Assembly (NCBI GenBank): GCA_049586675.1
Contig: JBAVCL010000010.1
Location: 1,074 to 65,073 of the forward strand
Length of the DNA: 64,000 nucleotides
Direction: 5' to 3'
Source: Dehalococcoidia bacterium
Lineage (GTDB): Bacteria > Chloroflexota > Dehalococcoidia > GIF9 > AB-539-J10
Below the pieces are notes generated by a model. That model was not told the origin of the DNA and searched no databases. It was given only the letters and a program-made list of their open reading frames with translations. Both the position numbers and the translations under genes were made by a program. The first letter of the stretch is position 1. Every line of letters starts with the position of its first letter. This document shows positions 15,578-64,000 of this stretch, piece after piece.

Positions 15578-15580
15578 ATT

Positions 15581-18113: not shown

Positions 18114-18119
18114 TGACTT

Positions 18120-18648: not shown

Positions 18649-18659
18649 ATTAAACTGCT

Positions 18660-18732
18660 GGGGATTAGTCTAGCGGTAGGACAGCGGGCTCTGGACCCGT
18701 GAGGCCAGGTTCGAATCCTGGATCCCCAGCCA
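18660..18732 (+). tRNA. tRNA-Gln (anticodon CTG)
   Basis: Cloverleaf folded by hand: acceptor GGGGATT/AATCCCC (3' strand read from the sequence), D-arm, anticodon stem GCGGG/CCCGT with loop CTCTGGA, T-arm CCAGG TTCGAAT CCTGG, discriminator G, encoded CCA. Confidence 0.8.
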
Positions 18733-18755
18733 ATAAACCTTCGGAAGGCAAGCGA

Positions 18756-19166
18756 ATGAAGGAAGAGCACCAAACACAGCGAGAGGTTAAGTATTTTATA
18801 GCGAATTTCGGTCAAGCACATGCTGAGAACCCAGTAGATGGCGGGTATTACCCCGTGTATTCTTGGTTTGGTGACACTAAAATGATATCTAAAGGCGATG
18901 TAATGCTTCTATGTTGTTGGGGTGGGCACAAAGGATTGTGGAAAGGGGATGCTTGGGGGCTCGGAAAAGTAACTGGCAAGGAAGAGCGCGAAGAAAACCT
19001 TTTTATTTCCTATAGATACAGGCAATTCGTTCCACCGATAAAGGGGGACGACGTTTACGACTGTCTTACGGACGCTGAGAAGCGAAAATTCAGAGGGGCG
19101 CGCCTGACAGCTAACTGGCTATTCAACATCACGCCCGTCTCTTTTCTATGTGCAGTTAGCAAGTAG
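18756..19166 (+). CDS. Hypothetical protein (start trimmed to MKEEHQ so it no longer overlaps the tRNA)
   Basis: ORF 18699..19166 trimmed to internal Met at 18756; no family recognised; AT-rich islet context. Confidence 0.45.
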   Translation: MKEEHQTQREVKYFIANFGQAHAENPVDGGYYPVYSWFGDTKMISKGDVMLLCCWGGHKGLWKGDAWGLGKVTGKEEREENLFISYRYRQFVPPIKGDDVYDCLTDAEKRKFRGARLTANWLFNITPVSFLCAVSK

Positions 19167-30724: not shown

Positions 30725-30800
30725 GGGCAGTTGGCTCAGTGGTTAGAGCGTCGGTTTCACATACCGAAGGTCACAGGTTCAAATCCTGTACTGCCCACCA
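30725..30800 (+). tRNA. tRNA-Val (anticodon CAC)
   Basis: Acceptor GGGCAGT/ACTGCCC, anticodon stem TCGGT/ACCGA with loop TTCACAT, T-arm ACAGG TTCAAAT CCTGT, discriminator A, CCA. Confidence 0.8.
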
Positions 30801-30820
30801 TAAAATAAGGAGGAAAGGAA

Positions 30821-31294
30821 ATGGCAGATGGTGGTAATAGCAGGGGAGGGTTGCTTACCGCTGGTGGAATCTTGAGTATAGTAGTGGGGGCATTTGAGGT
30901 AATTGGTGGAGTGCTAATGGTGGTTCTAGCAATAGGCACTAGAATACTGTTCAGGCTGGGGCTTCTTCCGTTCCGCCTACGCGTTTGGTTGGGACATATT
31001 ATACCTGTCATCCCAACCTGGTTGATTATAGTGGCTCTTATTGTTCTAGGTATACTAGCTATAGTAGGTGGCGTCTCGGCCATAAGAAGGAAAAACCTAA
31101 GTCTGTCCTTAATCGGGGCTATCTCTGCCCTTTGCTCAGGTATTTTGGTAATATTGGCAGGCATATTTTTGGTGGGCGGCATGCCTCGGCTTTTGGCTAT
31201 CTACGCCGTTCCATCAAGCATTTTGGTAATCTTGGGAATACTGGCAGTTATTTTTGTCTCCCTGTCAAAGAAAGAATTTGAAACAGAGAATTAG
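30821..31294 (+). CDS. Small hydrophobic membrane protein with internal repeats
   Basis: 157 aa, 4-5 predicted TM segments, AGGAGG RBS 6 nt upstream; sits between tRNA genes. Confidence 0.55.
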   Translation: MADGGNSRGGLLTAGGILSIVVGAFEVIGGVLMVVLAIGTRILFRLGLLPFRLRVWLGHIIPVIPTWLIIVALIVLGILAIVGGVSAIRRKNLSLSLIGAISALCSGILVILAGIFLVGGMPRLLAIYAVPSSILVILGILAVIFVSLSKKEFETEN

Positions 31295-31296
31295 AT

Positions 31297-31380
31297 GCCG
31301 AAGTGGCGGAATGGCAGACGCGCTACGTTCAGGGCGTAGTGTCCGTAAGGACGTGAGGGTTCAAATCCCTCCTTCGGCAC
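31297..31380 (+). tRNA. tRNA-Leu (anticodon CAG), long variable arm
   Basis: Acceptor GCCGAAG/CTTCGGC, anticodon stem CTACG/CGTAG with loop TTCAGGG, long variable arm, T-arm GAGGG TTCAAAT CCCTC; no encoded CCA. Confidence 0.8.
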
Positions 31381-31399
31381 TGTTTGGGCGGGGGTATAT

Positions 31400-31476
31400 A
31401 CGCCTGTAGCTCAGCTGGATAGAGCACAGCCCTGCGGAGGCTGGGGTCGCGGGTTCAAATCCCGCCAGGCGTGCCA
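31400..31476 (+). tRNA. tRNA-Arg (anticodon GCG as read; A1-U72 first pair)
   Basis: Acceptor ACGCCTG/CAGGCGT, D-arm GCTC AGCTGGATA GAGC (A20), anticodon stem CAGCC/GGCTG with loop CTGCGGA, T-arm GCGGG TTCAAAT CCCGC, G73, CCA. Confidence 0.7.
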
Positions 31477-31477
31477 T

Positions 31478-31553
31478 GGGCGGTTAGCTCAGTGGTGAGA
31501 GCGCCTGTCTTACACACAGGAGGTCAGAGGTTCAAGCCCTCTACCGCCCACCA
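31478..31553 (+). tRNA. tRNA-Val (anticodon TAC)
   Basis: Acceptor GGGCGGT/ACCGCCC, anticodon stem CCTGT/ACAGG with loop CTTACAC, T-arm AGAGG TTCAAGC CCTCT, A73, CCA; starts 2 nt after the previous tRNA. Confidence 0.8.
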
Positions 31554-39995: not shown

Positions 39996-41078
39996 CTACA
40001 GGTCAAACTCTGCCCAGACCGCTCCGTGATCCGACGCTGATGCTGTGATGCCGTTGTCCTGCACTTCTGGCCAAGCAATTACCTCCCCGTTGGAGTACTT
40101 TGCAACATCGAAAATACCTCTGCGTTCGACTCCGGCCTGTTTACATGCCTTCTGAAGCGGCTCTGAGACAAGAATGAAATCAAGCTGCTGATTCGTATCA
40201 TAATGGTATGTCCATCTGTCCTCAGGTTTGGCGATTTTCAGCGCAAGAACGTCTCTTAATTCTTTCAGGTTCATTAACGGCGATAGTGACTTGCTCTCAG
40301 GCGGGGCGTTAAAATCTCCGAGTACCACAACTTTGTCTTTCGTCAGGTCATAGTTCCGTTCTTTGATAATGTCTAGCACCCGTTTTGCTTGCCGCAGTCT
40401 TTTGGCATCGTTTTGCTCCTGTGAGCCGTATCCCTGACTCTTGAAATGATTGACGAAAAAGTATAGAAAATCGTCGCCTGGAAGCTTGATTGTTACTTCG
40501 AGACAATCCCGAGAGAAAATCGGTGAGCGTCCAACTTTCTCAAACATGTGCGTCCTGATATCGCACATCTCCAAGCGAGAAAGAAGCGAGACGTCGATTC
40601 CACGAGGATCGAATGCATCAATCAACATACTGTATGGATACTTCTTTTTGATTAATTGAGAATTGAATATATCGAGGGTGGGTTTGTTCTCTACCTCGAT
40701 GAGGCTGATGATGTCCGCGCTGACAGAGTTGATGACTTTCGCAGTGTTCATTCTTGTGATTTCGGGGAAGTTGTCGGCTTTGAATGCGACGAAGCCACCC
40801 CAGTCATTCCTGCCTTTCGCTTTTACGCCAACAACGTTGAACTTCAGACGCTTGAATAGTTTCTCACGCACTTCGTTTATATCGATGAAATCTTTCAGCT
40901 CGTTATAAAGGTTAAGAATCTTCTTGCCATCGTAGACATTCTTCTTCAGCTCCTTTTGTAGTTGGTCAACTTTAGCGAGTATTTCATCCCCGTCTCTCCA
41001 CTCTTCAAGATTAAAGACTTTTGCGCGGCGAAATAAGTTCTCCACATTGAACGTCGAAATTTTTAGAGTGTCACCCAT
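39996..41078 (-). CDS. Endonuclease/exonuclease/phosphatase (EEP) family protein
   Basis: 360 aa; C-terminal SDHGAVWAEFDL typical of EEP catalytic His motif. Confidence 0.7.
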   Translation of the reverse strand: MGDTLKISTFNVENLFRRAKVFNLEEWRDGDEILAKVDQLQKELKKNVYDGKKILNLYNELKDFIDINEVREKLFKRLKFNVVGVKAKGRNDWGGFVAFKADNFPEITRMNTAKVINSVSADIISLIEVENKPTLDIFNSQLIKKKYPYSMLIDAFDPRGIDVSLLSRLEMCDIRTHMFEKVGRSPIFSRDCLEVTIKLPGDDFLYFFVNHFKSQGYGSQEQNDAKRLRQAKRVLDIIKERNYDLTKDKVVVLGDFNAPPESKSLSPLMNLKELRDVLALKIAKPEDRWTYHYDTNQQLDFILVSEPLQKACKQAGVERRGIFDVAKYSNGEVIAWPEVQDNGITASASDHGAVWAEFDL

Positions 41079-41477
41079 CTATATCCTCCATGGTGCCACA
41101 GTTCTTACCCATTTTCCCTCCTTATTATCTTTTCATGGTGAGTCCAATCACCCACCTCCAATCCATATACTTGACCACTGACCTCAGATTGGATTCAAAG
41201 TACTATTTCCCGTAGACATTATTCCTATAATTGCTATAATATCGCTAGCTGAGGAAATTGTCAATAGCTTTTGTGCGGTGTCCAAAACATATTATAGAGT
41301 CAAGGAGTCACGAAACGATACTTGTGCAATACTAAAATGGGGTGATATTTTGGGTACATAATACCTAATTTGTAGTGGGCCTCATTGGTATGGTGTCCCT
41401 AAAATTCGCGGCGTCATGGAGCCTGAAAAATAGGTGTATAATCAAGCAGATTTTGCTACCTCGTGGGGATATGAGGA

Positions 41478-42149
41478 ATGGCTGTTCAGTTAGAGTTTTT
41501 AAAGAGCATTCTATACTTTTCTGATCTTAGCTTTGCTGAGCTTGAGTCAATCAGAAAGCTTGTCTTTGAGAAAACTGCTGACAGAGGAGAAATGGTCTTG
41601 CTTGAGGGTGAATCGGCTGAGAATCTGTATTTTGTCGCTGCGGGAGCGGTGAAAGTGTTCAAGACCTCGGCTGAAGGAAAGGAGCAAATCTTGAGCATTG
41701 TGCGCCCCGGAGAGTCCTTCAATGATGTCCCTATCTTCGATGGTGGTCCAAATCCCGCCAGTGCTCGAGCTATGGGACCCGTTATTCTTTATGGGATAAA
41801 GAAGAAGGACATGGAAGCTATCCTACGGGACCATCCACAGATAGCATTGAATGTAATTAAGGTGCTGGCAAGGCGAGTGCGTCACCTCGTATCGCTGGTT
41901 GAAGACCTGTCTTTCAGGCATGTCATCAGCAGGGTAGCCAAGATACTCTTTGAGCACATCGGAGGTGAAGTGGGCAGTGGGCCACGGCTTACACAGCAAG
42001 AAATGGCAGCTATGGCGGGCACTGCTCGGGAGGTAGTGGGTAGGTCGCTAAAGGCATTAGAGGAGGAGGGGGCGATCAAGGTGGATCGGCATCGCATAAT
42101 AATTACGGATAAAGAAGCTCTCCAAAAAATAATGGAGGTTCCTTCTTGA
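41478..42149 (+). CDS. Crp/Fnr-family transcriptional regulator
   Basis: cNMP-binding beta-roll plus C-terminal HTH (TQQEMAAMAGTAREVVGRSLKALEEEG). Confidence 0.85.
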   Translation: MAVQLEFLKSILYFSDLSFAELESIRKLVFEKTADRGEMVLLEGESAENLYFVAAGAVKVFKTSAEGKEQILSIVRPGESFNDVPIFDGGPNPASARAMGPVILYGIKKKDMEAILRDHPQIALNVIKVLARRVRHLVSLVEDLSFRHVISRVAKILFEHIGGEVGSGPRLTQQEMAAMAGTAREVVGRSLKALEEEGAIKVDRHRIIITDKEALQKIMEVPS

Positions 42150-42605: not shown

Positions 42606-44030
42606 TTGAAGATGATAACGGTTTTAGGAAACGTTAAAGATAGAGAACAAGTCTCTTCCGGGGATGAGGAATTAGATTTGGCTGGTGAGGAGAGTGGTCA
42701 GGAAGAGGAATTGTCCGAGCTTGAGGTTATTCCTCAAAAGCGGGAGTCTGAACTTGGTGAAGATTCGTTGAATTTATACTTAGCTGAAGTGGGGCAAACT
42801 CCCCTTCTCAATAAAGAGGAGGAAAAAATGCTGGCCAGCCAGATAGAGGATGGGAAGCATCTTGCCCGACTTGAGAAGGACTGGATTGCCGAGCACGGCG
42901 CTCAGCCTTCGCCAATCGACTTATTGTTGGTATTGGTGGAGCGCTTCAGCCGGGCGCGCTTGATTTTTGAAACCCTTTATCAGTATCTTAAACTTCCCTC
43001 TCGCAGGAGTCTGGCGGTGAAGGTATCGCACCCGGATTTACGTCGTGCCATCGATGGCAATATCGAGCAACATTTATCCAGCGCTATAGCTAAAATCACC
43101 GGAGCAAGCCAAACTAGAATTGAGGAGAGCGTGATTGAATTGTCACTGGACAGCCGGCTGATACCCTGGCATATCATGGAAGAAGCAGGACAGAAGAATT
43201 CCCTGGCTGCATTTGGGAAGATGCTGCAATCGCCGGAATTCCATGACAAACTGGAAGCGCATCGCTCAGAAATTGTCAAGCACTTTGAGCAAATAAGAGA
43301 AAGGGCACGGCAGGCAACCCACCGCATGATCCAAGCCAATTTGCGCCTGGTAGTAAGCGTGGCCAAGGGATATATTAATTGGAGCGTGCCTCTACCTGAT
43401 CTTATCCAGGAAGGCAATATCGGGTTAATGCAAGCAGTGCAGAAATTTGACCATCGCAGAGGCTGTAGGTTCAGTACCTACGCTACTCCCTGGATCTGGC
43501 AGGCAATCGACAGGGCAGTTAATGACCAGTCACGCATGGTGCGCCTGCCGGGACACGTGGTTGACGCTCTGACGAAGCTAGTACGGGCGAGGAATAGCTT
43601 AGCTGGGAAGCTTGGCCGCCAGCCGACTGAGAAAGAACTAGCTTCTGAGACGGGACTGCCGTCCAAAAACATAGCATCGCTGCTTAAGCTGAGTTCTGGT
43701 GGGCCTGTTTCTTTGGACACACCTGTAGGAGAAGACGGGAGCCAACTTGGTGATTTCATTGCAGATGAGGCAATTCTGCAGCCTGAGGAGGAGGCTACGG
43801 CAAGCCTGCTTAGGGAAGAACTGAGCAGAACATTTGAGTCGCTAACACCCCGAGAACGACGCGTCATTGAGCTGAGGTTTGGGCTAGACAATAAGTACAG
43901 TCGAACCCTAGAGGAGGTTGGCACAGAGTTAGGACTCACCAAGGAGCGAATACGCCAGATTGAAAAAGAAGCGCTGGCTAAGCTGCGCCATCCAAGTCAC
44001 AGCCGCGAGTTGATAGGGTATCTCGGATGA
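42606..44030 (+). CDS. RNA polymerase sigma-70 factor, RpoD/SigA-like (group 1 or 2)
   Basis: Regions 1.2, 2 (DLIQEGNIGLMQAVQKFD), 3 and 4 (TLEEVGTELGLTKERIRQIE) all present; nonconserved insertion. Confidence 0.85.
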   Translation: MKMITVLGNVKDREQVSSGDEELDLAGEESGQEEELSELEVIPQKRESELGEDSLNLYLAEVGQTPLLNKEEEKMLASQIEDGKHLARLEKDWIAEHGAQPSPIDLLLVLVERFSRARLIFETLYQYLKLPSRRSLAVKVSHPDLRRAIDGNIEQHLSSAIAKITGASQTRIEESVIELSLDSRLIPWHIMEEAGQKNSLAAFGKMLQSPEFHDKLEAHRSEIVKHFEQIRERARQATHRMIQANLRLVVSVAKGYINWSVPLPDLIQEGNIGLMQAVQKFDHRRGCRFSTYATPWIWQAIDRAVNDQSRMVRLPGHVVDALTKLVRARNSLAGKLGRQPTEKELASETGLPSKNIASLLKLSSGGPVSLDTPVGEDGSQLGDFIADEAILQPEEEATASLLREELSRTFESLTPRERRVIELRFGLDNKYSRTLEEVGTELGLTKERIRQIEKEALAKLRHPSHSRELIGYLG

Positions 44031-50449: not shown

Positions 50450-50639
50450 CTATATCACCGGATAGACCTTTTGTCAACAATCTGTCCTGACTGGTCACAT
50501 GGGTAACACTGGATATATACAGCCACGTTTTACCAGGGCTACAAGAGGCGGCAGTGGAAAAATTTGACAGGATTTTTGAGGTGGATGATAACAAAAACTC
50601 AGATGCTAATGTTAGCAAATTCTGACGATTTAGGTAGTG

Positions 50640-50800
50640 AGCCCTACAGAATTCGAACCTGCGCCACCCCGATTAAAAGTTATGGAGTGTCAAGATAGAG
50701 ACGTTATTATCAAGCATCAAAGATGTTCGCCTTTGGGCCACTTGAATCTATGTAGGCCCTAGCATATTAGAGTTGGTTCGGTAACAAAACAAGCAGGTCC
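50640..50800 (-). other. Element B: degenerate paralog of element A with a tRNA-like 3' region
   Basis: Reverse complement ...GGTGGCGCAGG TTCGAAT TCTGTAGGGCTCACTA; shares a conserved core including ATCAAGCATCAAAGATGTTCGCC with element A. Confidence 0.45.
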
Positions 50801-50959
50801 TACCTACCAGTCATCTGTGTCTGCGACTATTGACATCATATGAGTAGTTAGTTTATCGTTAATGCAAAGATGAAGGCAAAAGATGCCAAAAGGCTTCGCG
50901 GCAAAAATCGCCCTTTGAGTAGGTCAGTCATTTATTACGGCGACTATTAGGAGGGGCCG

Positions 50960-51466
50960 ATGAACGAAGAAGGCAAGACACTCAAAGTTCCAAACGCCAT
51001 CAAAAAGATGTTGCTGGGGGATGAACAAGTTATGGCAGTCATAAAGCAATCGAGGTTGAAGGCAGCCATTACACCCGACTCCATAATAATCACTAACCAG
51101 AGGATAATCAGATACTCTCCGTCAACCCTGGGATTACGTAAGGAGATTGAAGATTACAGGTATGAAGACATAGCTAATCTGAAAATCGATAAGGGAATTA
51201 TGTTTGCTACCGTCACCATAAAGCGGCGATTCATGAGCGAGGACCTAATCCTGGACAACCTCCAGAAAGGTCAGGTGGATTACGTTTCCAGGCTCATTCA
51301 GGAGAATCTCAGGCGAGTGAGTAGCGCGCCCGGATCCCCAGTTACAACGAATAAGCAGACTCCTCTAACTTCGCCAGAGGACCCTCTTCAAGTCCTGAAG
51401 CTTCGCTTTGCGAGGGGAGAGATTACCAAGGAACAATTTGAGGAAATGAAGAGGGCGTTGGAGTAG
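50960..51466 (+). CDS. Bacterial PH-domain protein with C-terminal SHOCT domain
   Basis: bPH-like N-terminal region; C-terminal LKLRFARGEITKEQFEEMKRAL = SHOCT motif. Confidence 0.55.
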   Translation: MNEEGKTLKVPNAIKKMLLGDEQVMAVIKQSRLKAAITPDSIIITNQRIIRYSPSTLGLRKEIEDYRYEDIANLKIDKGIMFATVTIKRRFMSEDLILDNLQKGQVDYVSRLIQENLRRVSSAPGSPVTTNKQTPLTSPEDPLQVLKLRFARGEITKEQFEEMKRALE

Positions 51467-51670
51467 ACTTGGCTGCTGCCCTGATTGCCCTCTGCCCTGT
51501 TCTCGTAGCTGCGATGATATAGGGACGGACTTTGCATACACTTCTTCAATGCCAACAAGATGGACCATTGTGTAATCAAGGCCCGTTAGGTGGTAAAATC
51601 ATCCACGGATACTGTGCAAACTGTGTGGCATTAATTGTAGTGTCTCTGTCGCCAGTCGACTAGTCTGCCC

Positions 51671-54843: not shown

Positions 54844-55320
54844 CTCTATGAAACAAGTCCGCGCTACCTCAACGTTCGTGTGGCAGCCTGCTTTGATAGC
54901 ACATTGTATGGCCTCGCCCTACGTTAGTCAACCCGGCTCGGTGTCCTGGCTGACCACGTGGGTAACACCGGGCAGCATATTTTAGCAAGTTCCTTTTCAA
55001 CATATTGTAGTAGAGGCTGGCCAGCTTTCTCATTCCGATAACTCCCATGGTAGGTTATCATCACTAAACATACCATGAGTGTTACTCATGTATCTCAGCC
55101 TCCGAAGGCCTATACGTACCAAGACGTTAGTAGCCAGCCTTCGGATTGTAAGTCAGTCGTCCCAAAGGATCATTTTGCGTATAAAATAGAACTGTTGTAT
55201 CAGCCGCCAAAAACCCGCTTTGTTCGTAAAATGCCAACTGGTAACAACACGTCCTAAATAATTTAACGCCAAAATTCTAGCTTCTGTTTATACGTGGGAC
55301 AATGGCAACAAGTGACTAAC

Positions 55321-55794: not shown

Positions 55795-55860
55795 GAATTT
55801 CAGGGACACCATACCAATCAGGCCTGCTACAAATCAGGTACTCTATCCACCGAATACCAC
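55795..55860 (+). repeat. Array repeat R1 (about 65 bp imperfect palindrome)
   Basis: GAATTTCAGGGACACCATACCAATCAGGCCTGCTACAAATCAGGTACTCTATCCACCGAATACCAC. Confidence 0.85.
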
Positions 55861-56184
55861 AAGCTGGTTAGATTTACTCGTAGTCGGGCTTAACAAAACG
55901 ATGTTTTATATAGTCGCTTGTCTCGGTCAATACAAAATAAGGAACTAAACAGAATGAATAAATGTTACACTGCACTTCGCTGGGTTAATTCAGTGCGTAT
56001 TGACAAATGCCCAGGACGGACTACAATAAAATTGTCTAACATCTGAACCGACTGCAAATTCAATAGGAGCAGGGATGAACAAGATGAAGCAGATAACAAA
56101 GATGCTGGAATCGCTAAATAGATGCGGTGGTCGGCACCTTTTTTAAGACATATTAATCTCTGCTGCTAATTAAGGAGGACTGTA

Positions 56185-56601
56185 ATGAATAAAACTGAGA
56201 TTATGGCTTTCCTAAAGGCAATCCCAATCTGTTTTCTAGCCACTACTGAAGGTAATAAGCCTCATGTCCGTGCCTTAGGGGTGTATAGAGTGGATGAGAA
56301 TGGTATTATTCTGCAGTCAGGAAAAGGGAAAGACTTACATAAGCAATTAGTCTAGAATCCTGAGGTTGAGATTTGCTTCTGCGATGCACAAAACTTTATG
56401 CAGGTAAGAGTTAGCGGCCGTATAGAGATAGTTGAAGACTTGGCACTGAAGAAGGAAATCGTTGACAAACGTCCTCATATAAAGCCAATTGTTGAACGAG
56501 TGGGGTACGACCTCATATCTGTTTATAGATTGAAAAATGGAAAGGCGACCTTTTGGTCTATTAAGGAGCCGTTGGCACCTAAGACTTATGTTGACTTATA
56601 G
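56185..56601 (+). pseudogene. Pyridoxamine 5'-phosphate oxidase-family (PNPOx-like) gene with in-frame TAG at 56353-56355
   Basis: ATG after AAGGAGG; MNKTEIMAFLKAIPICFLATTEGNKPHVRALGV...KQLV*NPEVEICFCDAQNFMQVRVSGRIEIVED...; the two halves are continuous in one frame. Confidence 0.65.
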
Positions 56602-56610
56602 CAAATGGTG

Positions 56611-56680
56611 GAATTCCAGGGACACCATACGTCAAAATTAGGCCTACCACAAAATCAGGTATTATTTTCCCCGAATACCG
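56611..56680 (+). repeat. Array repeat R2
   Basis: GAATTCCAGGGACACCATACGTCAAAATTAGGCCTACCACAAAATCAGGTATTATTTTCCCCGAATACCGC. Confidence 0.85.
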
Positions 56681-56757
56681 CAGGCGCAATGTTATATTGG
56701 TACATAAAAAGTGATCTGGGCTTCAATCTCTCCTAACACGTGTCTCTTTGATGGAAT

Positions 56758-57324
56758 CTAATCTGATTGGCGGCGTGATTCTTTTACCAGAAACAACACA
56801 AGAATAAAGCCTATCGACGCAAGTACTGCTCCCAAAAGGAATATTGTGCGGAAACCGATAATTTCTGAGAGGAAACCACCGAAGGCGGGACCTATCATCC
56901 AGCCAACGGATATCGTTTGCTGATAGACACCCATAGCCCAGCCCCTCTTATCTGCAGTGATAATGTCGGCTATGTAGGCTGTGACCGAAGCACCAATGGC
57001 GACCCAAGCAGCGCCTTCGAGGACTTGTATACCATATACCACCACATAACCTTGTGCCAGGAAATAAAGGACAAAAATTAGTGCAAAACTAGCCATCGAA
57101 CCGAGGATAATCGGTTTCCTACCAAAACGGTCTGCTGCCTTCCCCAGAAGTGGACCAAAGAGTAACCCTACCAGAGAACCAACCATATATATCAAGCCAA
57201 TCTGAGTCCTCGGTGCTCCAAGCACTTCACCCATATAGAGCGAGAACATAGAATAAACCAGACCGGAGCAAATCATCAGGGGTAGTGCACAAGCACAGAG
57301 AACATAGAGTTTTTTCTTTTCCAT
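56758..57324 (-). CDS. MFS transporter, N-terminal half only (6 TM, 188 aa; truncated)
   Basis: MFS motif A GKAADRFGRKP between TM2 and TM3; full MFS proteins are about 400 aa with 12 TM. Confidence 0.65.
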   Translation of the reverse strand: MEKKKLYVLCACALPLMICSGLVYSMFSLYMGEVLGAPRTQIGLIYMVGSLVGLLFGPLLGKAADRFGRKPIILGSMASFALIFVLYFLAQGYVVVYGIQVLEGAAWVAIGASVTAYIADIITADKRGWAMGVYQQTISVGWMIGPAFGGFLSEIIGFRTIFLLGAVLASIGFILVLFLVKESRRQSD

Positions 57325-57481
57325 AGGTCACACTCCTGAAAGTATATTTTCGGCAAAGACTGCCCGATGGGGATACCTCGTCCCCTCATACCTTTGTCCG
57401 CCATTCTATCTCTGTTCTGGCATCATTCACAAGAGTGCCGTTTGGCAATAATTCTGTAGTAGCAATTAGATAACAATCGGC

Positions 57482-57547
57482 GAATTTCAGGGATACCATA
57501 CCAATCGCGCCTGCTACAGATTAGGTATTATGTCCCCCGAATACCAC
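57482..57547 (+). repeat. Array repeat R3
   Basis: GAATTTCAGGGATACCATACCAATCGCGCCTGCTACAGATTAGGTATTATGTCCCCCGAATACCAC. Confidence 0.85.
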
Positions 57548-57627
57548 TTGCAACAAATTATAGGGCATGCTTAAATTGGAAAGTGAACAGATTATAGGAC
57601 AAAACATAAAAGGAGGTATCAATAACA

Positions 57628-58272
57628 ATGGCAACAGAAGCGTCACCAACCCCACCCGCATATCCCGCTACTCTGACAATCGACTACCCGGATAGACCGC
57701 TTAATCGGTTAACCACGTTCTTCAGGATCTTCGTAGTAATTCCAATCGCTATTATTCTGGCCTTGGTAGGTGGTGCGAACTCTAATTGGAGTGGAATGCA
57801 TGGTTGGTACTGGCTATATGGTGCAGGAGGTATCTTGTTCCTAGCAACCCTACTCATGATTCTTTTCCGGCAAAAGTACCCCAGGTGGTGGTTTGATTGG
57901 AATGTAGCATTGATTAAGTTCAGCACTCGTGTTTCCACTTATGTTGGTCTCCTTACAGATGTATACCCCTCAACTGACGAAGAGCAGGCGGTTCACATTG
58001 AGATCCCCTATCCCGACGTTCCGAAAGACCTTAACCGTTGGTTACCACTAGTGAAGTGGTTTCTAGCTATCCCACACTACATCATCCTAGCTTTCCTGGG
58101 GATTGCAGCCTTCGTTTGTGTGGTGATAGCCTGGTTTGCCATCTTGTTTACTACTCGCTATCCTAGAGGTCTATTTGACTTCGTAGTTGGTGTATACAGA
58201 TGGTCGCTGAGAGTAGCTGCATACGCTTTTTTGTTGACAACGGATCGGTATCCACTCTTCAGTCTGTCCTAG
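57628..58272 (+). CDS. DUF4389-like membrane protein
   Basis: YPATLTIDYPDRPLNRLTTFFRIFVVIPIAIIL and a second half-repeat ...LVKWFLAIPHYIILAFL; tandem DUF4389-like modules. Confidence 0.55.
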   Translation: MATEASPTPPAYPATLTIDYPDRPLNRLTTFFRIFVVIPIAIILALVGGANSNWSGMHGWYWLYGAGGILFLATLLMILFRQKYPRWWFDWNVALIKFSTRVSTYVGLLTDVYPSTDEEQAVHIEIPYPDVPKDLNRWLPLVKWFLAIPHYIILAFLGIAAFVCVVIAWFAILFTTRYPRGLFDFVVGVYRWSLRVAAYAFLLTTDRYPLFSLS

Positions 58273-58316
58273 ATTTACCCTAGCCATATTAGGGAACACG
58301 TACCTTGGGTGAATGC

Positions 58317-58383
58317 GAATTCCCGAGACACCATACCAATCAGGCCTGCTACAAATCAGGTATTATATCCCCCAAATACCGCG
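58317..58383 (+). repeat. Array repeat R4
   Basis: GAATTCCCGAGACACCATACCAATCAGGCCTGCTACAAATCAGGTATTATATCCCCCAAATACCGC. Confidence 0.85.
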
Positions 58384-58467
58384 GCATCTCACCCGCGTCT
58401 TAAACATCTGATCTCGGGCATCCCCACCCCTGTTCATCCCTTCCAAGACATTGACTAAGGTGCTACA

Positions 58468-58815
58468 ATGTTCTTAATGAATGGCTATACATTGAGAGAG
58501 GCTGCCCAGGCTTTAGGGGTCTCAATAATTACCATCCGTCGGTATATCAAGTCCGGCAAGCTCAAGGCCAGGCTAGTCCCTTCCAAGTTCGGGCCGTCAT
58601 ATATTATTGACGACTTACCCATGCTCACCAAGTCCTCATCAGATAACACCCTATCAACCCAACCGATCATCAATAGAATAGAGCAGTTATCCCAAGAGGT
58701 CGGCTACTGGAAAGCCAAAGCAGAATTACTTGAGGAACGATTATTACTTCTGGAAGCCCCTAAGCAGACCCATAAACAAAAATGGTGGCAAAGGCTATTC
58801 AGGCCTTGGCACTAA
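58468..58815 (+). CDS. Excisionase-family helix-turn-helix (HTH_17-like) DNA-binding protein with C-terminal coiled coil
   Basis: YTLREAAQALGVSIITIRRYIKSGKLKARLV matches the excisionase/MerR-type HTH pattern. Confidence 0.55.
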   Translation: MFLMNGYTLREAAQALGVSIITIRRYIKSGKLKARLVPSKFGPSYIIDDLPMLTKSSSDNTLSTQPIINRIEQLSQEVGYWKAKAELLEERLLLLEAPKQTHKQKWWQRLFRPWH

Positions 58816-59056
58816 ATAGATAAGGCTGCTCTAACCACTAACACAAAGTGAGAAAGGCTAATCCATAGCAATTACACTATGAGCTCGAATTAGAAACCAG
58901 ACCCACACTGAACGGGAGAGAGAATAGGATTTCCGACGACTTCACTGTCAGGATGGCTCACGGGAGAAGGAAATAAGATAGGATCACCCAATTGTGTGTG
59001 GGTGCGGCAAGGAGGTTTAATGCCCTTTCTCGGGCCTCTCAGGTGCCTTCTAGCGG

Positions 59057-59123
59057 GAATTCTGGTGACACCATGCTAATTTAGGCCTACTATAAATCAG
59101 GCATTATGTCCCCAGAATACCAC
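59057..59123 (+). repeat. Array repeat R5
   Basis: GAATTCTGGTGACACCATGCTAATTTAGGCCTACTATAAATCAGGCATTATGTCCCCAGAATACCAC. Confidence 0.85.
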
Positions 59124-59197
59124 AACAATTCCAGGTCATCGGTGAGCGGAAAGTTGACAGCACCATGTCAGCCGTCTAAAGTGTAAGTCAGTGAGTT

Positions 59198-60253
59198 GTG
59201 CCATGCTCACTCACTGTGCTCTTAGCGTCTATGGAACCAGGATACGTTGCGCTATACCACTCTGGCGAATTGGAACGTCGTGCTCAAGTACTCGAGGCTC
59301 GATTAGCCTCCTGCGCTATCTGCCCCAGGGAATGTCGGGCCAATAGATTACAAAACGAACTGGGCTATTGCCATTCCGGGCGCCTACCCATAGTCTCGGC
59401 AGCCTGCGCTCATCACGGTGAGGAGCCGGCTATTTCAGGAACCAGAGGGTCAGGGACAGTTTTCTTTGGCAATTGTAATATGAGATGCGTTTATTGTCAG
59501 AACTACCAGATAAGTCAGAACTGGAAAAAGCAAAAATCAAAGGAAATGGACTGCCACACCTTGGCGGAAAGGATGCTCTACCTTCAGGATGAACTGGGCT
59601 GCCACAATATCAATTTCGTTTCGCCATCTCATTTTGTTCCTCAGCTCCTGCGGGCAGTTGTGGAAGCGGTGCCCATGGGGCTTCGAGTGCCGCTGGTTTA
59701 CAACACTAGTGGTTATGATTCTGTCGCTTCTTTGAAAGAGCTTGACGGTGTCATAAGTATCTACTTGCCTGATTTGAGATATGCCTCGGACAAGTGGGCT
59801 AAGAAGTTCTCGCATGCCCCGGATTATGTAGCACGGGCTCGTCAGGCTATTAAAGAGATGTATCGACAGGTTGGAGACCTGGTGGTGGATGAATCTGGCG
59901 TGGCACAAAAAGGATTGATAGTGCGTCATCTTATTCTGCCCAACGGTCTGGCAGGCAGTGAAGAATCGCTAACCTGGCTTGTTCGGGAGCTTTCTCCCAC
60001 GGTGACGGTTAGCGTAATGTCTCAATACATGCCGATTCACCGGGCGCCGCGAATACCACTGCTTTCTCGGAAGATCACCGTTGACGAGCAGGAAACAGTC
60101 CTCAAGCTGCTAACTGACCTGGGAATAGAAAACGGCTGGGTGCAGGAAATGGGGGCAGCAGAAGAGTATCTCCCTGATTTTGAACGAGCAGGTCACCCTT
60201 TCTCCCCAGCGAATTCCCGGGATACCATACCAATCAGGCCTACTACAAATTAG
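59198..60253 (+). CDS. Radical SAM protein, PflX-like (putative glycyl-radical activating enzyme family)
   Basis: CNMRCVYC CxxxCxxC motif; PflX/COG1313-like N-terminus; last 11 codons and stop lie inside repeat R6. Confidence 0.65.
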   Translation: MPCSLTVLLASMEPGYVALYHSGELERRAQVLEARLASCAICPRECRANRLQNELGYCHSGRLPIVSAACAHHGEEPAISGTRGSGTVFFGNCNMRCVYCQNYQISQNWKKQKSKEMDCHTLAERMLYLQDELGCHNINFVSPSHFVPQLLRAVVEAVPMGLRVPLVYNTSGYDSVASLKELDGVISIYLPDLRYASDKWAKKFSHAPDYVARARQAIKEMYRQVGDLVVDESGVAQKGLIVRHLILPNGLAGSEESLTWLVRELSPTVTVSVMSQYMPIHRAPRIPLLSRKITVDEQETVLKLLTDLGIENGWVQEMGAAEEYLPDFERAGHPFSPANSRDTIPIRPTTN

Positions 60254-60275
60254 GTATTATGCCCCCAGTATACCC
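60211..60275 (+). repeat. Array repeat R6
   Basis: GAATTCCCGGGATACCATACCAATCAGGCCTACTACAAATTAGGTATTATGCCCCCAGTATACCC. Confidence 0.85.
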
Positions 60276-60345
60276 AACGATATGTTAAGATGGGTGAAAT
60301 GGACCTTCCATTGTGGCGTGATTTCAGCGATATTCTGCTCGAGGA

Positions 60346-61032
60346 ATGATCATGTCTGTAACAAGATTCATCAAGGATATACTGAGGAAATCTGAATCAA
60401 TCCCCACCCCGGGTGCCATAATCTACAATGCGACAGTGGCAATAGTTCTGCGCAAGCCTGAAACAAAGATTGCTGAGGACATAGTGGAAAAGATGGGAAG
60501 CGGGACTATTCTTGATTTAGGTTCGGGACCAGGCTATTTGTCAATAGAGATTGCCAAGAGGTCACCCAGCCTACAGATCTATGGCATAGATCTCAGCAGG
60601 CAAATGGTCAAGATTGCCAGACGCCATGCCCAAGGCGTTGATAATGCTCGATTTGTGTTTGGCAATGCGGCCAAACTCCCTTTTAAGGATAATTCCATAG
60701 ACCTTGTGATTAGTACGGGTGCTTCGCACCATTGGAAGACACCACGACTGGTGTTTGATGAATGCTATCGTGTTCTAAAAACCGGCAAGGAAGCCTGGAT
60801 ATACGACGGGTGTCCTGAGGTTTTCAACAACCCGGCTGATAGAAGAAAGGTAAACAAGGAATATGGTTTCTTCGTTGGCCGATTTGGACCTAGAGTCTCT
60901 ACACTACATGGTTTCACCAAGGAAGAATACCAGACCGAAATTAAGGATTATGTAGAGCAAACGGCATTCAAAGGCAACTACCAGATGGCGCTAACAGATA
61001 TTTGGATGAAGATTACGCTTAAGAAACGCTAG
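60346..61032 (+). CDS. Class I SAM-dependent methyltransferase
   Basis: ILDLGSGPGYLSIEIA motif I and downstream motifs (DLVISTGASHHW). Confidence 0.75.
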   Translation: MIMSVTRFIKDILRKSESIPTPGAIIYNATVAIVLRKPETKIAEDIVEKMGSGTILDLGSGPGYLSIEIAKRSPSLQIYGIDLSRQMVKIARRHAQGVDNARFVFGNAAKLPFKDNSIDLVISTGASHHWKTPRLVFDECYRVLKTGKEAWIYDGCPEVFNNPADRRKVNKEYGFFVGRFGPRVSTLHGFTKEEYQTEIKDYVEQTAFKGNYQMALTDIWMKITLKKR

Positions 61033-61035
61033 TGA

Positions 61036-61102
61036 GCAGTTCCAGGGATACCATACCAATGAAGCCTACTACGAATTAGGTATCATGTCCTCAGAATACC
61101 AT
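61036..61102 (+). repeat. Array repeat R7
   Basis: CAGTTCCAGGGATACCATACCAATGAAGCCTACTACGAATTAGGTATCATGTCCTCAGAATACCAT. Confidence 0.85.
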
Positions 61103-61149
61103 GTTGGACACTGCAAGGACACCCTGGTCGGCCGTTTTAGTACTCCCTG

Positions 61150-62652
61150 TCAGCCTTCCTTTGTCACGCTGAGTCGTCTCCGGTCTATCTGGCCCGACCC
61201 GGTTCTAGGCAGGTTGTCAACAAACTTGATTTGTTTGGGCACTTTATAATCAGATAAGCTCTGGCGACAAAAATCGCGTATTTCGTCCGCCGTAGCACTT
61301 TGTCCTTGCTTAAGCACTATGAAAGCTGTGGGAATTTGCCCTTTGTAATCATCAAGGACACCGACACAGGCTATTTCGGCTACCGCGGGATGTCTCAGCA
61401 GAACTTCTTCAACTGCCTCGGGGAGAATCTTAACTCCCCCCGAGGGCACTATGATAGATGATGTCTTTTCTATGAATTCCAGGTAGCCGTCCTCATCCAG
61501 CTTGACCAGGTCGCCAGTATAAAACCAACCATCTTTGATGACCCGGGCCGTGAGTTCAGGCGACTTGTAGTATTCTTTCATCATCCAGGGGGCTCTAGCA
61601 ACAGCTTCCCCTACGCTGCCCCGGGGTACTTCCTTGCCATTTTTATCCAGCACTCTAAGCTCAGCCAGGGGCTTCCCTGCCGTACCCAATTTGCGGTCGC
61701 GAATAGCACCTATAGTGACGATTATCAACTCCGTGAGCCCATATATTTCGCACACAGTTAAGCCAAACTTCTTCTCAAGCATCTCCATGAAAAGGGCTGA
61801 GGATTTTGCTCCGGCAGAAAGCACCGCTCTTAACGAACTGAGGTCATAGCTCTTCATCATCTCTTCGTCTATCATGGCCATGGCATTAAAGCTAGCCGGG
61901 ACGCCTATAAGCATGGTTGCTTTTTCCTGCTCTACAGTCTCCAAGATATTCTTGGAACTGAAATGAGGGAGGATTGCTATAGTGGCTCCCCTCATAACAG
62001 GCATGAGAACAACCAGCCCAAATCCCAGAAGGTAGTTAAAAGGGAGCAGACCTAACACAACATCGTCTCTCTCCAGTTCAAATTTTGCCACTGCTATGGG
62101 CAAAATTGACATGAACGACGCGTGAGTATGCACTATGCCCTTGCTCTTCCCCAGCACACCCAGGGTGTAAAAAACGATAGCTTCATCCTCGCCCTCTATA
62201 TTGACAGAGGGTGATAGAGGGGAGCTACTGGCCACAATCCCCTTATAATGGTCTGTATCAACTTCAAGGACCTGTTTCAGCAGGGGGACATTGGGCAAGA
62301 CTGAAGACAGCATGGGGGAGAATCTTTCTTCGGTAATCAGGATTTTGGAATCAGATCCACGGAGCTGAGGCTCAAGTTCGGGCACCTTAGCTCCGCTATC
62401 GAGGAGCACGCCCACAGCTCCAGCTTTAAGCACTCCAAAACAATTGATGACCCACTCAGGAGTACGAGACATTAGAATGGCTACGTGGTCGCTCTTCTTT
62501 ATCCCTAGACTCAGAAGGGCGTTGGCTATCTTGTTAGAAGTTTCATCAAATTCGCGGTAGCTAACTTTGCGAGAGCCAAGGACGATGGCCGTTTGCTGTG
62601 GCACCTCGCGGGCAGTTCTTTCTAGCATCTGCTTGAGATTCTTGAGATCCAT
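61150..62652 (-). CDS. AMP-dependent synthetase/ligase (acyl-CoA synthetase family)
   Basis: 500 aa; AMP-binding motifs (YTLGVLGKSKGIVHTH; YGLTE; GWFYTGDL). Confidence 0.85.
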   Translation of the reverse strand: MDLKNLKQMLERTAREVPQQTAIVLGSRKVSYREFDETSNKIANALLSLGIKKSDHVAILMSRTPEWVINCFGVLKAGAVGVLLDSGAKVPELEPQLRGSDSKILITEERFSPMLSSVLPNVPLLKQVLEVDTDHYKGIVASSSPLSPSVNIEGEDEAIVFYTLGVLGKSKGIVHTHASFMSILPIAVAKFELERDDVVLGLLPFNYLLGFGLVVLMPVMRGATIAILPHFSSKNILETVEQEKATMLIGVPASFNAMAMIDEEMMKSYDLSSLRAVLSAGAKSSALFMEMLEKKFGLTVCEIYGLTELIIVTIGAIRDRKLGTAGKPLAELRVLDKNGKEVPRGSVGEAVARAPWMMKEYYKSPELTARVIKDGWFYTGDLVKLDEDGYLEFIEKTSSIIVPSGGVKILPEAVEEVLLRHPAVAEIACVGVLDDYKGQIPTAFIVLKQGQSATADEIRDFCRQSLSDYKVPKQIKFVDNLPRTGSGQIDRRRLSVTKEG

Positions 62653-62718
62653 TGTCTCCCCCCAGACTTGATGAGTTTTAAGTAGGATTATGAGCTAATT
62701 TCCTATTTCCTGTCAATA

Positions 62719-62783
62719 GAATTTCAGGGATACCATATCAATCGGGCTTACTACAAATCAGGCATTATTTCCCCAAAATACTA
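62719..62783 (+). repeat. Array repeat R8
   Basis: GAATTTCAGGGATACCATATCAATCGGGCTTACTACAAATCAGGCATTATTTCCCCAAAATACTA. Confidence 0.85.
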
Positions 62784-62901
62784 AGGAATAATGCAACCTT
62801 TTTCGGCCTTCCGCGTTGTAGTAGTAATAGAAGAGACAGTGGGGAAAGTTCAGCAGATTGGACTAATAAATTTCATTGTAAAAGTGTAAAAGGAGGATAA
62901 A

Positions 62902-63675
62902 ATGAGTAACAAAAAGCTGGCAGGAATCCTAGGAAGTTGTATTGCACTTATCATCGCGATAGTAGCCATAGCTGCTCTCACACCAGCATCCGGGGAGGCG
63001 AATGAGAATACTGCATTTCACATTAATGTGATACCTGAAACGCCCGAGCTGATAAACGGAGAGTTGACTTTCAAATACTCTATTGCCGGACAGCACTTCG
63101 TATTCCTCGTGACAATTACCGATGAAGGTCAAGAAGGTCAACTTCTTGTACATATATCAGCGAAGGCTCCTGGCGTAGAAGTAGTCATTTATCAGCAGGA
63201 TATAGTTGAGGGACAAGTTGCCGAGGTGGTTGTCATACCAACACAAAAAAGCATTGGAAAAACTATTAAGGTAACTATCACTGGAAGTCAAGGTAGTCTG
63301 ACTGACAAAAAAGTTGTTAGCTTCAAAGTGGTAGAAGGTGAAGATGACAGGCAAGAATATGCCGGAGAGTTGCTAGATACATTTGTTTCCTGGCTAGCAA
63401 CGAATCATCCGGAACTCGGAATCACAGAGGATACAGCATGGAATGGCACTATGGTTAGCCCGGTATGGTTAGTTGTATCTCACTATTTTTTCTTCTCGGA
63501 GGAATGGGAGGTTCATATATCATGGCATATAATGATACCTCCATACGACTGGGCAAAGATCGACCTCCGTCATCGGTTCGACCAACTAGCGCCATCTTAC
63601 GCTTTTGAGATTTCATCAGTGAATGCTACCAGTGAGCCTATACCGACAGAAGTGCCAGAGACAGTTTGGCGTTAA
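62902..63675 (+). CDS. Hypothetical signal-anchored extracytoplasmic protein
   Basis: N-terminal hydrophobic segment LAGILGSCIALIIAIVAIAAL, then soluble domain with no recognised family; GGAGG RBS. Confidence 0.5.
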   Translation: MSNKKLAGILGSCIALIIAIVAIAALTPASGEANENTAFHINVIPETPELINGELTFKYSIAGQHFVFLVTITDEGQEGQLLVHISAKAPGVEVVIYQQDIVEGQVAEVVVIPTQKSIGKTIKVTITGSQGSLTDKKVVSFKVVEGEDDRQEYAGELLDTFVSWLATNHPELGITEDTAWNGTMVSPVWLVVSHYFFFSEEWEVHISWHIMIPPYDWAKIDLRHRFDQLAPSYAFEISSVNATSEPIPTEVPETVWR

Positions 63676-63679
63676 ACTG

Positions 63680-63746
63680 GAAATCCCAGGGACACCACAC
63701 CAATTAGGTCTACTATAAATTAGGTATCATGTCCCCAGAATACCCT
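63680..63746 (+). repeat. Array repeat R9
   Basis: GAAATCCCAGGGACACCACACCAATTAGGTCTACTATAAATTAGGTATCATGTCCCCAGAATACCCT. Confidence 0.85.
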
Positions 63747-64000
63747 GAACCCTGTTCAAAACGACGCAGGTAATCTCGTCCGCCCCTGGCTGGAGAAGCC
63801 GATTTTTTGAAAACTCAGGTGATTGCTTTATACTATTCTATGATCGATATAGCGATGACAGTATAGACGACTCGGGAATGTTACCTTGGGCGACAGGGAT
63901 TTAGAACTGCTGGAATTTCACAAGATACGGTAGCAACTGACTGCCGCGATTTTGTTAATCCGCTCACTCTGAGGCGGGCTAGCCATTTACAGAATGTTGG

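Follow-up and report, generated by a model that had tools for sequence, protein, structure and literature searches.

A stretch of 64,000 nucleotides from a Dehalococcoidia bacterium (GenBank assembly GCA_049586675.1, contig JBAVCL010000010.1, positions 1,074 to 65,073), referred to below as the window, was analysed for an array of genes separated by copies of a short repeat. Using a repeat search and a hidden Markov model (HMM) built from the copies, nine copies (R1–R9) of a sharply bounded 64-nt repeat were located on the + strand at 55795–63744, with a single gene in each interval between successive repeats (Table 1). An earlier inspection of the sequence by a model (the original prediction) had described nine same-strand repeats and one gene of unrelated function per interval; all nine were recovered over this span, the gene identities were borne out by Pfam, and the in-frame stop at 56353 in the PNPOx gene was confirmed. 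The copies are too divergent for the literal consensus given there, which yielded no match even when 3 mismatches were allowed; the HMM and a degenerate 36-nt pattern were used instead, the latter with 8 matches in the window compared with 0 in 100 shuffles. The predicted pairwise identity of 80–90% was too high, as the 64-nt cores ranged from 0.73 to 0.89 (median 0.81), and the copies are not all on the + strand, since a solitary tenth copy on the minus strand had been overlooked. Distances from stop codons to repeats agreed with the earlier values (~4, 4, 9, 44 and 241 nt plus one overlap for genes on the + strand, calculated from open reading frame (ORF) and core coordinates). The window appears to contain one of several chromosomal arrays of mobile cassettes in a Dehalococcoidia clade.

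The array ends at R9, because this copy is followed by the start of mutS2, represented by its conserved leader and its first 15 codons. A continuation beyond the window end, which had been considered possible, is not what we found: the upstream region of mutS2 comes next, and in relatives a second array lies after mutS2 and a vms1-like gene. An exact-protein look-up to extend the contig returned only a 3.7-kb Logan contig, identical to the window. The intergenic gaps had been described as free of recognisable promoters; several cassettes do have good sigma-70-type promoters, for example at 56000, 59154 and 62716 (minus strand). The cargo had also been called partly decayed, which holds for the PNPOx gene with its in-frame stop, whereas the half-size MFS gene may be intact: it is kept half-size, and also adjoins DUF4389, at another array (locus L224; individual loci are given as L numbers), so that decay may not be the cause. 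The gene for the AMP-binding enzyme of cassette 7 is opposed to the repeats in the window and at all homologous loci. The DUF4389 protein has >120 homologue clusters at ≥82% identity and was found in differing array contexts at L096, L098, L153, L019, L084, L224, L227 and L228.

Table 1. Repeats, cassettes and boundaries of the array and the solitary repeat copy. Positions refer to the window; the spacer is the 6-bp centre of the core described in the text.
Feature	Position	Strand	Remarks
Solitary tenth repeat	41344..41407	-	complete core TACAAAT-TAGGTA-TTATGTA; between EEP nuclease gene (39996-41078, -) and crp-like gene (41478-42149, +)
Repeat R1, first of array	55795..55858	+	core TACAAAT-CAGGTA, spacer 55835-55840, degenerate right arm CTCTATC
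Cassette 1, PNPOx-family pseudogene	56185..56601	+	in-frame TAG 56353-56355; own promoter TTGACA-16-TACAAT at 56000-56027
Repeat R2	56611..56679	+	69 nt; small central insertions
Cassette 2, 188-aa protein, N-terminal half of MFS_1	56758..57324	-	Pfam
Repeat R3	57482..57545	+	spacer TAGGTA at 57522-57527
Cassette 3, DUF4389 membrane protein	57628..58272	+	Pfam
Repeat R4	58317..58380	+	spacer CAGGTA at 58357-58362
Cassette 4, 115-aa HTH_17/MerR-type DNA-binding protein	58468..58815	+	L021 homologue downstream of mutS2
Repeat R5	59057..59121	+	spacer CAGGCA; sole window copy whose hairpin is significantly stable (z = -3.6)
Cassette 5, radical SAM protein	59198..60253	+	promoter TTGACA-17-TAAAGT at 59154-59182; ORF end inside R6
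Repeat R6	60211..60274	+	spacer TAGGTA
Cassette 6, SAM-dependent methyltransferase	60346..61032	+	Pfam
Repeat R7	61037..61100	+	spacer TAGGTA
Cassette 7, AMP-binding (acyl-CoA synthetase-like) enzyme	61150..62652	-	promoter TTGACA-18-CATAAT, 62716-62687 on the minus strand
Repeat R8	62719..62782	+	spacer CAGGCA
Cassette 8, 257-aa hypothetical protein	62902..63675	+	N-terminal hydrophobic segment; no Pfam match
Repeat R9, last copy	63680..63744	+	spacer TAGGTA; conserved mutS2 upstream region next
Right boundary of array, mutS2 leader and first 15 codons (...LGDRDLELLEFHKIR)	63760..63930	+	promoter-like site 63807-63834

The repeat was characterised from an alignment of 293 copies. It is a 64-nt element (GAATTCCAGGGACACCATACCAATCAGGCCTACTACAAATCAGGTATTATGTCCCCAGAATACC) with ~1.5–1.8 bits at almost every position and five hypervariable columns. 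The site is laid out as GAATTCCAGGGACACCAT-(16-nt centre or 17-nt hairpin)-ACAAATCAGGTATTATGTCCCCAGAATACC, with outer parts that are inverted repeats (GAATTCCAGGGACA / TGTCCCCAGAATAC). Across species-level metagenome-assembled genomes (MAGs) that share only ~67% nucleotide identity in rpoD, all 64 nt are ~90% conserved per position. The central 16 nt are, in some genomes, swapped for an unrelated perfect 7-bp hairpin (CCTTCAC-CTT/AAG-GTGAAGG), while the left 18 nt and the right 30 nt are constant; since the centre is replaceable and the arms are constant, the constrained parts are the two arms plus the segment ACAAATCAGGTATTATGTCCCC. Variants of the type CCTTCAC-NNN-GTGAAGG, either inserted or replacing the centre, were found at L224 (3103-14282), L045 (2041-2128), L095 (~5116) and L230 (7408-7491 and 9135-9223). 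Their loop reads CTT or the complement AAG, which suggests that the palindrome flips or inserts both ways. Other small hairpin insertions in repeats were seen at L206 (CCCCGATTTAATCGGGG), L114 and L177.

A separate palindromic element of the type ...GTCATTGCGAGG..CCCGACAAGTCGGGGC..GCAATGAC.. is present in some cassettes just upstream of repeats. It was found at L230 (6160-6215), in L020 as an extension of the cassette with a candidate small RNA described below, and in flanks at L029, L079, L003 and L148. The motif CACGCCGGTAGGGCGC, which precedes some repeats, is part of this element and was rejected as an extension of the repeat; the proximity of the element to repeats explains part of the variability of left junctions considered below.

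According to the original prediction, the repeat is an imperfect palindrome. This is true of its sequence, but most copies fold no better than shuffled ones (DNA hairpin z ~0 for 8 of the 10 window copies), an all-pairs scan for covariation gave no hairpin-compatible covarying column pairs, and compensatory double changes were not in excess among the 293 copies (18 observed versus 15.5 ± 3.7 in shuffles). Weak folding together with the lack of covariation and of compensatory excess argues against a structural role of the outer inverted repeats, and these results argue that it is the sequence rather than the structure that is conserved. They bear on the idea that the repeat acts at the level of RNA or transcription, as a terminator, insulator, processing site or small RNA. 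Its intergenic position, often 0–10 nt from stop codons, and its imperfect hairpin would suit such a role; however, the repeat has no match in Rfam, folds weakly without a U-tract or covariation, and keeps its orientation within an array whichever way the neighbouring genes point, as an RNA element tied to a gene could not. We regard this explanation as extremely improbable.

The distribution of the repeat was determined in a genome collection (102 blocks in 35 assemblies) and in metagenomes (at least 120 further loci). Thirty of the 35 assemblies are labelled Chloroflexota, mostly Dehalococcoidia or Dehalococcoidales, and the few others are mostly short, possibly mis-binned contigs. The HMM detected 292 and 297 copies in these two sets, so that at least ~600 are present in the 223 loci retrieved; nearly all of these loci derive from metagenomes or from MAGs of Dehalococcoidia. 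A genome has several arrays, which occupy conserved housekeeping loci: in the order array - mutS2 - vms1-like (acVLRF1) - array - argG/D/B/J - dnaE, around rpoD, and near dtd/fur. Contigs of 737, 345, 254 and 235 kb contained one positive 8-kb block each. The median spacing between repeats is ~0.9–1.0 kb, with mostly one or two ORFs per interval. Viral contigs contained the repeat just twice, and it is therefore not a phage element. No description of the repeat or of such Dehalococcoidia arrays was found in the searchable literature.

At five loci (L020 5819-7877, L045 30-2128, L094 4196-6263, L048 and L195), an rpoD-like sigma-70 gene (490 aa) is bracketed by co-oriented repeats, and the same applies to the mutS2 and vms1-like pair at L021 (797-4253). 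In the window, by contrast, no repeats flank rpoD (42606-44030), and the solitary copy in its vicinity is on the opposite strand.

Copies are co-oriented in 220 of the 223 loci; the three exceptions, in which both orientations occur, are the window, L167 and L210. The original prediction had named genome-wide scatter, as shown by repetitive extragenic palindromic (REP) sequences or miniature inverted-repeat transposable elements (MITEs), as an outcome speaking against a cassette system; no such scatter was seen, and the clustering and co-orientation exclude this pattern. Like REPs, their mosaic and hairpin-forming assemblies (BIME, REPIN) and MITEs, the repeat is a short, partly palindromic sequence that lies between genes and reaches tens of copies per genome. 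Unlike them, it is strictly co-oriented in clusters at few loci, shows no compensatory hairpin evolution, has neither target-site duplications nor a detected REP-associated (RAYT) or IS200-like transposase, and encloses genes that are themselves the mobile units. A probe for IS200/IS605 TnpA had no match in array DNA. A MITE with target-site duplication was rejected, as the left (GAATTC) and right (GAATAC) ends differ in all copies.

Comparison of related genomes demonstrates that cassettes are gained, lost and reshuffled, with fixed polarity. Among 55 homologous cassette pairs with both neighbours, the upstream neighbour differed in 54, as did the downstream neighbour (54/55). At the ten loci that share cassettes with the window, the order differs in every case, and none of 22 homologues is inverted relative to the repeats; when all data are taken together, 342 homologous pairs have the same orientation and 0 are inverted. 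The window order DUF4389 - HTH - radical SAM (rSAM) - methyltransferase (MTase) - AMP(-) - 257-aa hypothetical (hyp257) - mutS2 is thus replaced by DUF4389 - AMP - mutS2 ... MTase in L153, AMP - MTase - rSAM - DUF4389 in L096, DUF4389 - MTase - AMP - mutS2 in L098, rSAM - x - DUF4389 in L084 and hyp257 - x - rSAM in L063. Cassettes with 95–99% identity occur in different arrays, and some are duplicated inside one array. The second outcome named as adverse, identical gene order in all relatives, is therefore excluded by the differing neighbours and orders. As neither outcome was observed, the region is a mobile-cassette system.

The cargo comprises 340 cassettes in 211 families. Cassettes contain one or two genes, measure ~0.35–2.5 kb and in most cases bring a promoter of their own. 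Toxin-antitoxin modules are abundant, and examples include HicAB, MazF+HTH, MNT/HEPN, Fic, a restriction-modification system, flavodoxin and hydrolases. Gene orientation relative to the repeats is mixed (158 dominant ORFs co-oriented and 105 opposed; 87 and 72, respectively, when counted by family), and cassette-internal promoters of the type TTGACA-N16-18-TAnnnT are present. The commonest family (14 copies at 12 loci, ~335–344 bp) has no ORF of ≥50 aa; its copies include those at L084 (2648-2986 and 6420-6763), L042 (two), L019, L020 and L029. It contains a promoter (TTGACA-17-TAGTAT) on the strand opposite to the repeats, followed by a ~140-nt rod-like hairpin with a 13-bp closing helix and a U6 run. 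The hairpin has an alifold energy of -66.7 (z = -2.7), mostly G-U-compatible changes and no Rfam match, and is a candidate for a novel small RNA carried as a cassette.

The position of exchange was approached through variation in and around the repeat. Family-specific sequence starts directly after GAATACC, and MazF/HTH cassettes always show GAATACC followed by CTACTTGAGT. A C-to-T variant in the final ACC of the repeat goes with the downstream family. Sharing of rare variants was increased 4.4-fold for the last bases of the repeat and 3.9-fold for its 3' flank with the downstream cassette, and 4.0-fold for the first 8 nt with the upstream cassette; in upstream repeats, mismatches become fewer from column 49 on. 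By these comparisons, the exchange point is placed inside the repeat, at a position that the polymorphism data do not fix. Mapping by polymorphism is weak because the divergence of cassettes (~10%) is close to the background divergence between repeats. A search for truncated repeats gave too few cases for statistics on breakpoints.

Junctions with two unrelated elements were found within the repeat. L230 is the end of a siphophage-like prophage with an SPP1-type portal, a terminase and a 388-aa Xer-like integrase. Beside int, the sequence reads ...GAGGTGTGTCATAA-CAGGTA-TTATGCCC, followed by a cassette family elsewhere found after complete repeats and then by more array cassettes. The int-proximal phage arm, common to related phages, ends with GTCATAA, and CAGGTA-TTATGCC and the bacterial cassettes come next; the core of the related phages is a dif-like palindrome (GTCATAA-TGATGG-TTATGAC). 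As phage homology ends before CAGGTA, the junction in L230 is at the left edge of this hexamer. At L241 (Dehalococcoidia bacterium DG_18) and L242, an undamaged repeat sequence runs from GAATTCC through TACAAAT-CAGGTA and then switches to ATTTGAC followed by CACCCTTCCACG, 165 nt upstream of the 277-aa integrase gene of an Int+ParB element. The latter sequence is the P' arm, which L239, L243 and L253 also have in their intact attP sites. Related Int+ParB elements have the attP sequences GACAAAT-CCTGTG-ATTTGTC followed by TACCCTTTCACG, GACAAAT-CGCTGG-ATTTGTC followed by TAGCCTTTCACG and GTCAATT-CTTGTG-AATTGTC followed by CACCCTTGACAT; since this layout matches, the boundary between host and element at L241 and L242 is at the right edge of CAGGTA.

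The junctions at both edges of the spacer mark a tyrosine-recombinase core inside the repeat, and because the left arm resembles the arms of the Int+ParB family and the right arm those of the phage family, this core is two-armed and dif-like. The two elements thus appear to use TACAAAT-YAGGTA-TTATGTC (7-6-7) as attB, with a predicted crossover in the 6-bp spacer. Both integrases are Xer-like, with XerA, XerC or XerD as best NCBIfam models (all below cut-offs) and XerA 4A8E and XerD 1A0P as closest structures. IntI4 matched the element integrases just over a short C-terminal stretch, and the repeat-touching integrases scored 83 bits against the integron-integrase model TIGR02249 (cut-off 265).

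Two Dehalococcoidia-associated families of integrative elements with Xer-like integrases were recognised, namely phages (L233-L235, L232 and L230) and Int+ParB elements of ~13–15 kb (L239-L254), both with palindromic 7-6-7 attP cores ~60–170 nt upstream of int. Their spacers differ among relatives (TGATGG, CCTGTG, CGCTGG, CTTGTG, CAGGTA), which implies retargeting through spacer change. The ~277-aa and ~380-aa integrase families were rejected as housekeeping Xer proteins, as both are encoded by mobile elements. A hybrid sequence, ...ATTATGCCC followed by GCGGGTTATG, was rejected as a phage junction because it is the start of a common cassette family; the true L230 junction is across CAGGTA.

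Such junctions could also point to tandem accretion, in which integrative elements inserted repeatedly at an attB-like site, decayed and left cargo between att scars, similar to cis-mobilizable elements (CIMEs), the cassettes themselves not being mobile units. Two element families do integrate into the repeat, the arrays occupy conserved hotspots of the chromosome (mutS2, the arg operon, rpoD, dtd/fur), and the many toxin-antitoxin, restriction-modification and Fic genes among the cargo are what mobile elements typically carry. However, integration duplicates the shared core only, with attL and attR carrying element arms, whereas cassettes have complete 64-bp repeats on both sides. The arrays moreover consist of tightly packed single genes with no element remnants, and the same cassette is found at 85–99% identity in many neighbour contexts, sometimes duplicated within an array. 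Fossil accretion is therefore considered distinctly unlikely.

Our preferred interpretation, to which we assign a probability of roughly 55%, is that cassettes are exchanged by site-specific recombination at the Xer-type core, with the recombinase supplied in trans. The 7-6-7 core lies between the inverted outer arms, which are probably accessory or second binding sites. Recombination between two direct sites would release a cassette in circular form together with one site; this circle could then recombine with any other copy, and the cassette would return to an array in its former polarity. The enzyme would be encoded elsewhere, either as a host Xer-like recombinase or as the Xer-like integrases of resident phages or integrative elements that use the same core as attB. 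We infer that cassettes move via the same core as these elements, that a tyrosine recombinase is the catalyst and that double-stranded DNA is the substrate. Excision and re-insertion of this kind would account for the differing order and content at constant polarity; site-specific exchange would explain the single-cassette differences, the precise right junction and the strong conservation of core and arms; and an enzyme acting in trans would explain the absence of linked recombinase genes, as in integrase-free cassette clusters and dif modules (see below).

Several observations weigh against this interpretation. Array DNA (~1.33 Mb) was searched by tblastn with IntI1, XerD, gamma-delta resolvase and IS608 TnpA as well as the Xer-like integrases found here, and contained no IntI, serine recombinase, HUH transposase or linked recombinase. 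The sole match, the L062 integrase, was rejected as the cognate enzyme, being of ordinary phage type and 4.4 kb from a lone repeat. The 64-kb window contains no xer gene, intI or other recombinase, in line with the original prediction. No circular cassette or empty-site junction was observed. The element junctions are just two in number and show the core as an attB for element integrases, not the movement of cassettes through it. The spacers CAGGTA, TAGGTA and CAGGCA coexist within the window array, a mixture that would hinder strand exchange if the whole hexamer were the overlap region. The central ~50 nt of the repeat are not clearly linked to either neighbour, which is also expected from distributed homologous crossovers or gene conversion, and the left junction between the 3' end of the gene and the repeat varies within cassette families. 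Finally, repeat variants tend to be genome-specific; most copies at L224 are the hairpin variant, which suggests that repeats are homogenised within a genome. Homologous recombination between repeats could contribute to the shuffling or even account for it.

In its full form, this alternative holds that the repeats are selfish or neutral intergenic sequences and that shuffling is a by-product of RecA-dependent homologous recombination or gene conversion between 64-bp repeats, including homology-facilitated replacement after DNA uptake, with no dedicated site-specific recombinase. The lack of a linked recombinase, the unlinked centre between ends that are both linked to adjacent cassettes, the genome-specific variants and the variable left junctions would all fit, and direct repeats would likewise keep polarity. 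On the other hand, a passive repeat would decay, whereas this one is ~90% conserved per position at ~67% nucleotide identity of rpoD; it has sharp edges and invariant arms even when the centre is replaced; its core is recognised by two element integrases; and 64 bp at ~81% identity is a poor substrate for RecA. We consider homologous recombination as the whole explanation unlikely. As to the broader claim that Dehalococcoidia possess an integron-independent cassette system, with multi-locus arrays, promoter-bearing cassettes, a 64-bp composite site with an Xer-type core and a recombinase in trans (of the host or of docking elements), the odds appear to us to be about even.

Integrons are regarded as the general bacterial platform for capture and shuffling of single-gene cassettes, and surveys search for attC sites and IntI. 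The attC site has R'' (RYYYAAC) and R' (GTTRRRY) end boxes, and its structure is kept while its sequence is variable; IntI has an additional domain. Integron cassettes are mostly promoterless, co-oriented and expressed from the Pc promoter, and an adjacent IntI is required for a complete integron, not for a cluster of attC sites lacking integron-integrases (CALIN). The Dehalococcoidia arrays are similar to sedentary chromosomal integrons, such as those with Vibrio cholerae repeats (VCRs), and to CALINs in having tandem one- or two-gene cassettes with a co-oriented site of ~60–70 nt, content and order that vary among relatives at fixed polarity, a diverse, toxin-antitoxin-rich cargo mostly of unknown function, and an exchange point within the repeat whose last bases go with the next cassette. 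As in CALINs, there is no adjacent integrase.

In contrast to integrons, however, the repeat has neither R''/R' boxes nor signs of selection for structure, and its sequence is kept across many species. Its 7-6-7 core is of the double-stranded, dif/attP-like type, no IntI and no attI/Pc platform were found in the array DNA, the genes are near-unbiased in orientation with their own promoters, and each genome has several arrays, which bracket housekeeping genes such as rpoD and mutS2. The original prediction had already noted the absence of canonical attC cores, and this was confirmed for the consensus of the 293 copies, which begins with GAATTCC, ends with CAGAATACC and has no RYYYAAC/GTTRRRY boxes and no AAC...GTT pair on either strand. 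Of its proposal of an integron- or CALIN-like cluster, the cassette array that is reshuffled with fixed polarity stands, while the assignment to integrons or CALINs does not agree with the attC features, IntI or the gene bias.

For an integron array or CALIN in the strict sense, the repeats would have to be attC sites of divergent sequence, on which an IntI from another locus acts while they are folded as single strands. This would be compatible with modules of one gene each, in some of which the stop codon immediately precedes the repeat, with a folded geometry (~18 paired positions, two internal loops, a variable terminal part) that is loosely similar to an attC stem, and with the occurrence of integrons in Chloroflexota (PMC4889954, PMC8618304). 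The missing boxes, hairpin energies no better than shuffled for most copies, the lack of compensatory excess, the conservation of sequence instead of structure across species, genes with nearly unbiased orientation and their own promoters, the many arrays per genome, the absence of IntI from 1.33 Mb, and site-using integrases that are Xer-like and well below the integron-integrase cut-offs make it very improbable. Even when combined, the integron and RNA-level explanations carry little probability.

Acinetobacter dif modules have 28-bp pdif sites in inverse orientation, reside on plasmids and are thought to depend on XerC/XerD (PMC6449649, PMC13141974). The arrays share with them small modules (single genes, toxin-antitoxin pairs, Fic) at Xer-type sites with a 6-bp central region, shuffled contexts and the lack of a module-encoded recombinase, the enzyme being presumed to act in trans. 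They differ in having 64-bp composite direct sites in chromosomal arrays of an unrelated phylum, and the arms of the repeat match the dif consensus just at TTATGT. Similar to integrative mobile elements exploiting Xer recombination (IMEX) and phages at dif-like sites, the L230 prophage and the L241/L242 Int+ParB element integrate at an Xer-type core with crossover in the central region; unlike IMEX, they carry their own Xer-like integrases and do not rely on host XerCD, and their target is a multi-copy array repeat instead of a single chromosomal dif. The repeat system thus lacks the defining properties both of integrons (attC features, IntI, promoterless co-oriented cassettes) and of dif modules (inverse 28-bp plasmid sites), and would come close to a new class if a dedicated enzyme were found.

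The remaining features of the window are those of a chromosome, with an EF-G and ribosomal-protein operon (+ strand, strongly positive GC skew) and six tRNA genes (positions 1-19000 and 30725-31553) as well as rpoD. The GC content of the array (0.463) is no different from that of the rest of the window (0.46–0.48). To the right of the array (window 63886-64000), the mutS2 frame stops at ~63931, after which all nucleotide homology to four related loci is lost, and a terminator-like hairpin (CGGTAGCAACTGACTGCCG) is present at this homology break; an insertion or a rearrangement close to the window end seems to have disrupted mutS2 in this genome. To the left, the ORF at 50960-51466 (bPH_3 + SHOCT; block 50780-51565) is 84–88% identical to sequence of L210, L201 and L166. 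The gene lies between two array repeats in L210 and, in the window, ~4–5 kb left of R1 with no detectable adjacent repeat; this locus may have supplied the cassette, or it may once have belonged to the array and since decayed. A 30-nt sequence (TGTCCTGACTGGTCACATGGGTAACACTGG) is found twice with 83% identity (50483-50512 and 54942-54971), both times between genes, and brackets a bPH/SHOCT - radical SAM - rubrerythrin - serpin block immediately left of the array; a regulatory function is conceivable, as is membership of a further repeat family.

The Dehalococcoidia arrays combine the population behaviour of integrons with a different site and no integron integrase, in an abundant uncultured lineage of sediment and soil. 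If the interpretation as a separate system is true, cassette arrays would have evolved more than once, and cassette exchange would be linked to Xer-like recombinases and phage attachment sites. As the site is compact, with a core defined by natural junctions, it is directly testable in heterologous recombination assays. The interpretation would also bring to light a large and so far hidden pool of mobile Dehalococcoidia genes, of which the clusters of the DUF4389 cassette protein alone give an impression, and which current integron-finding tools would miss.

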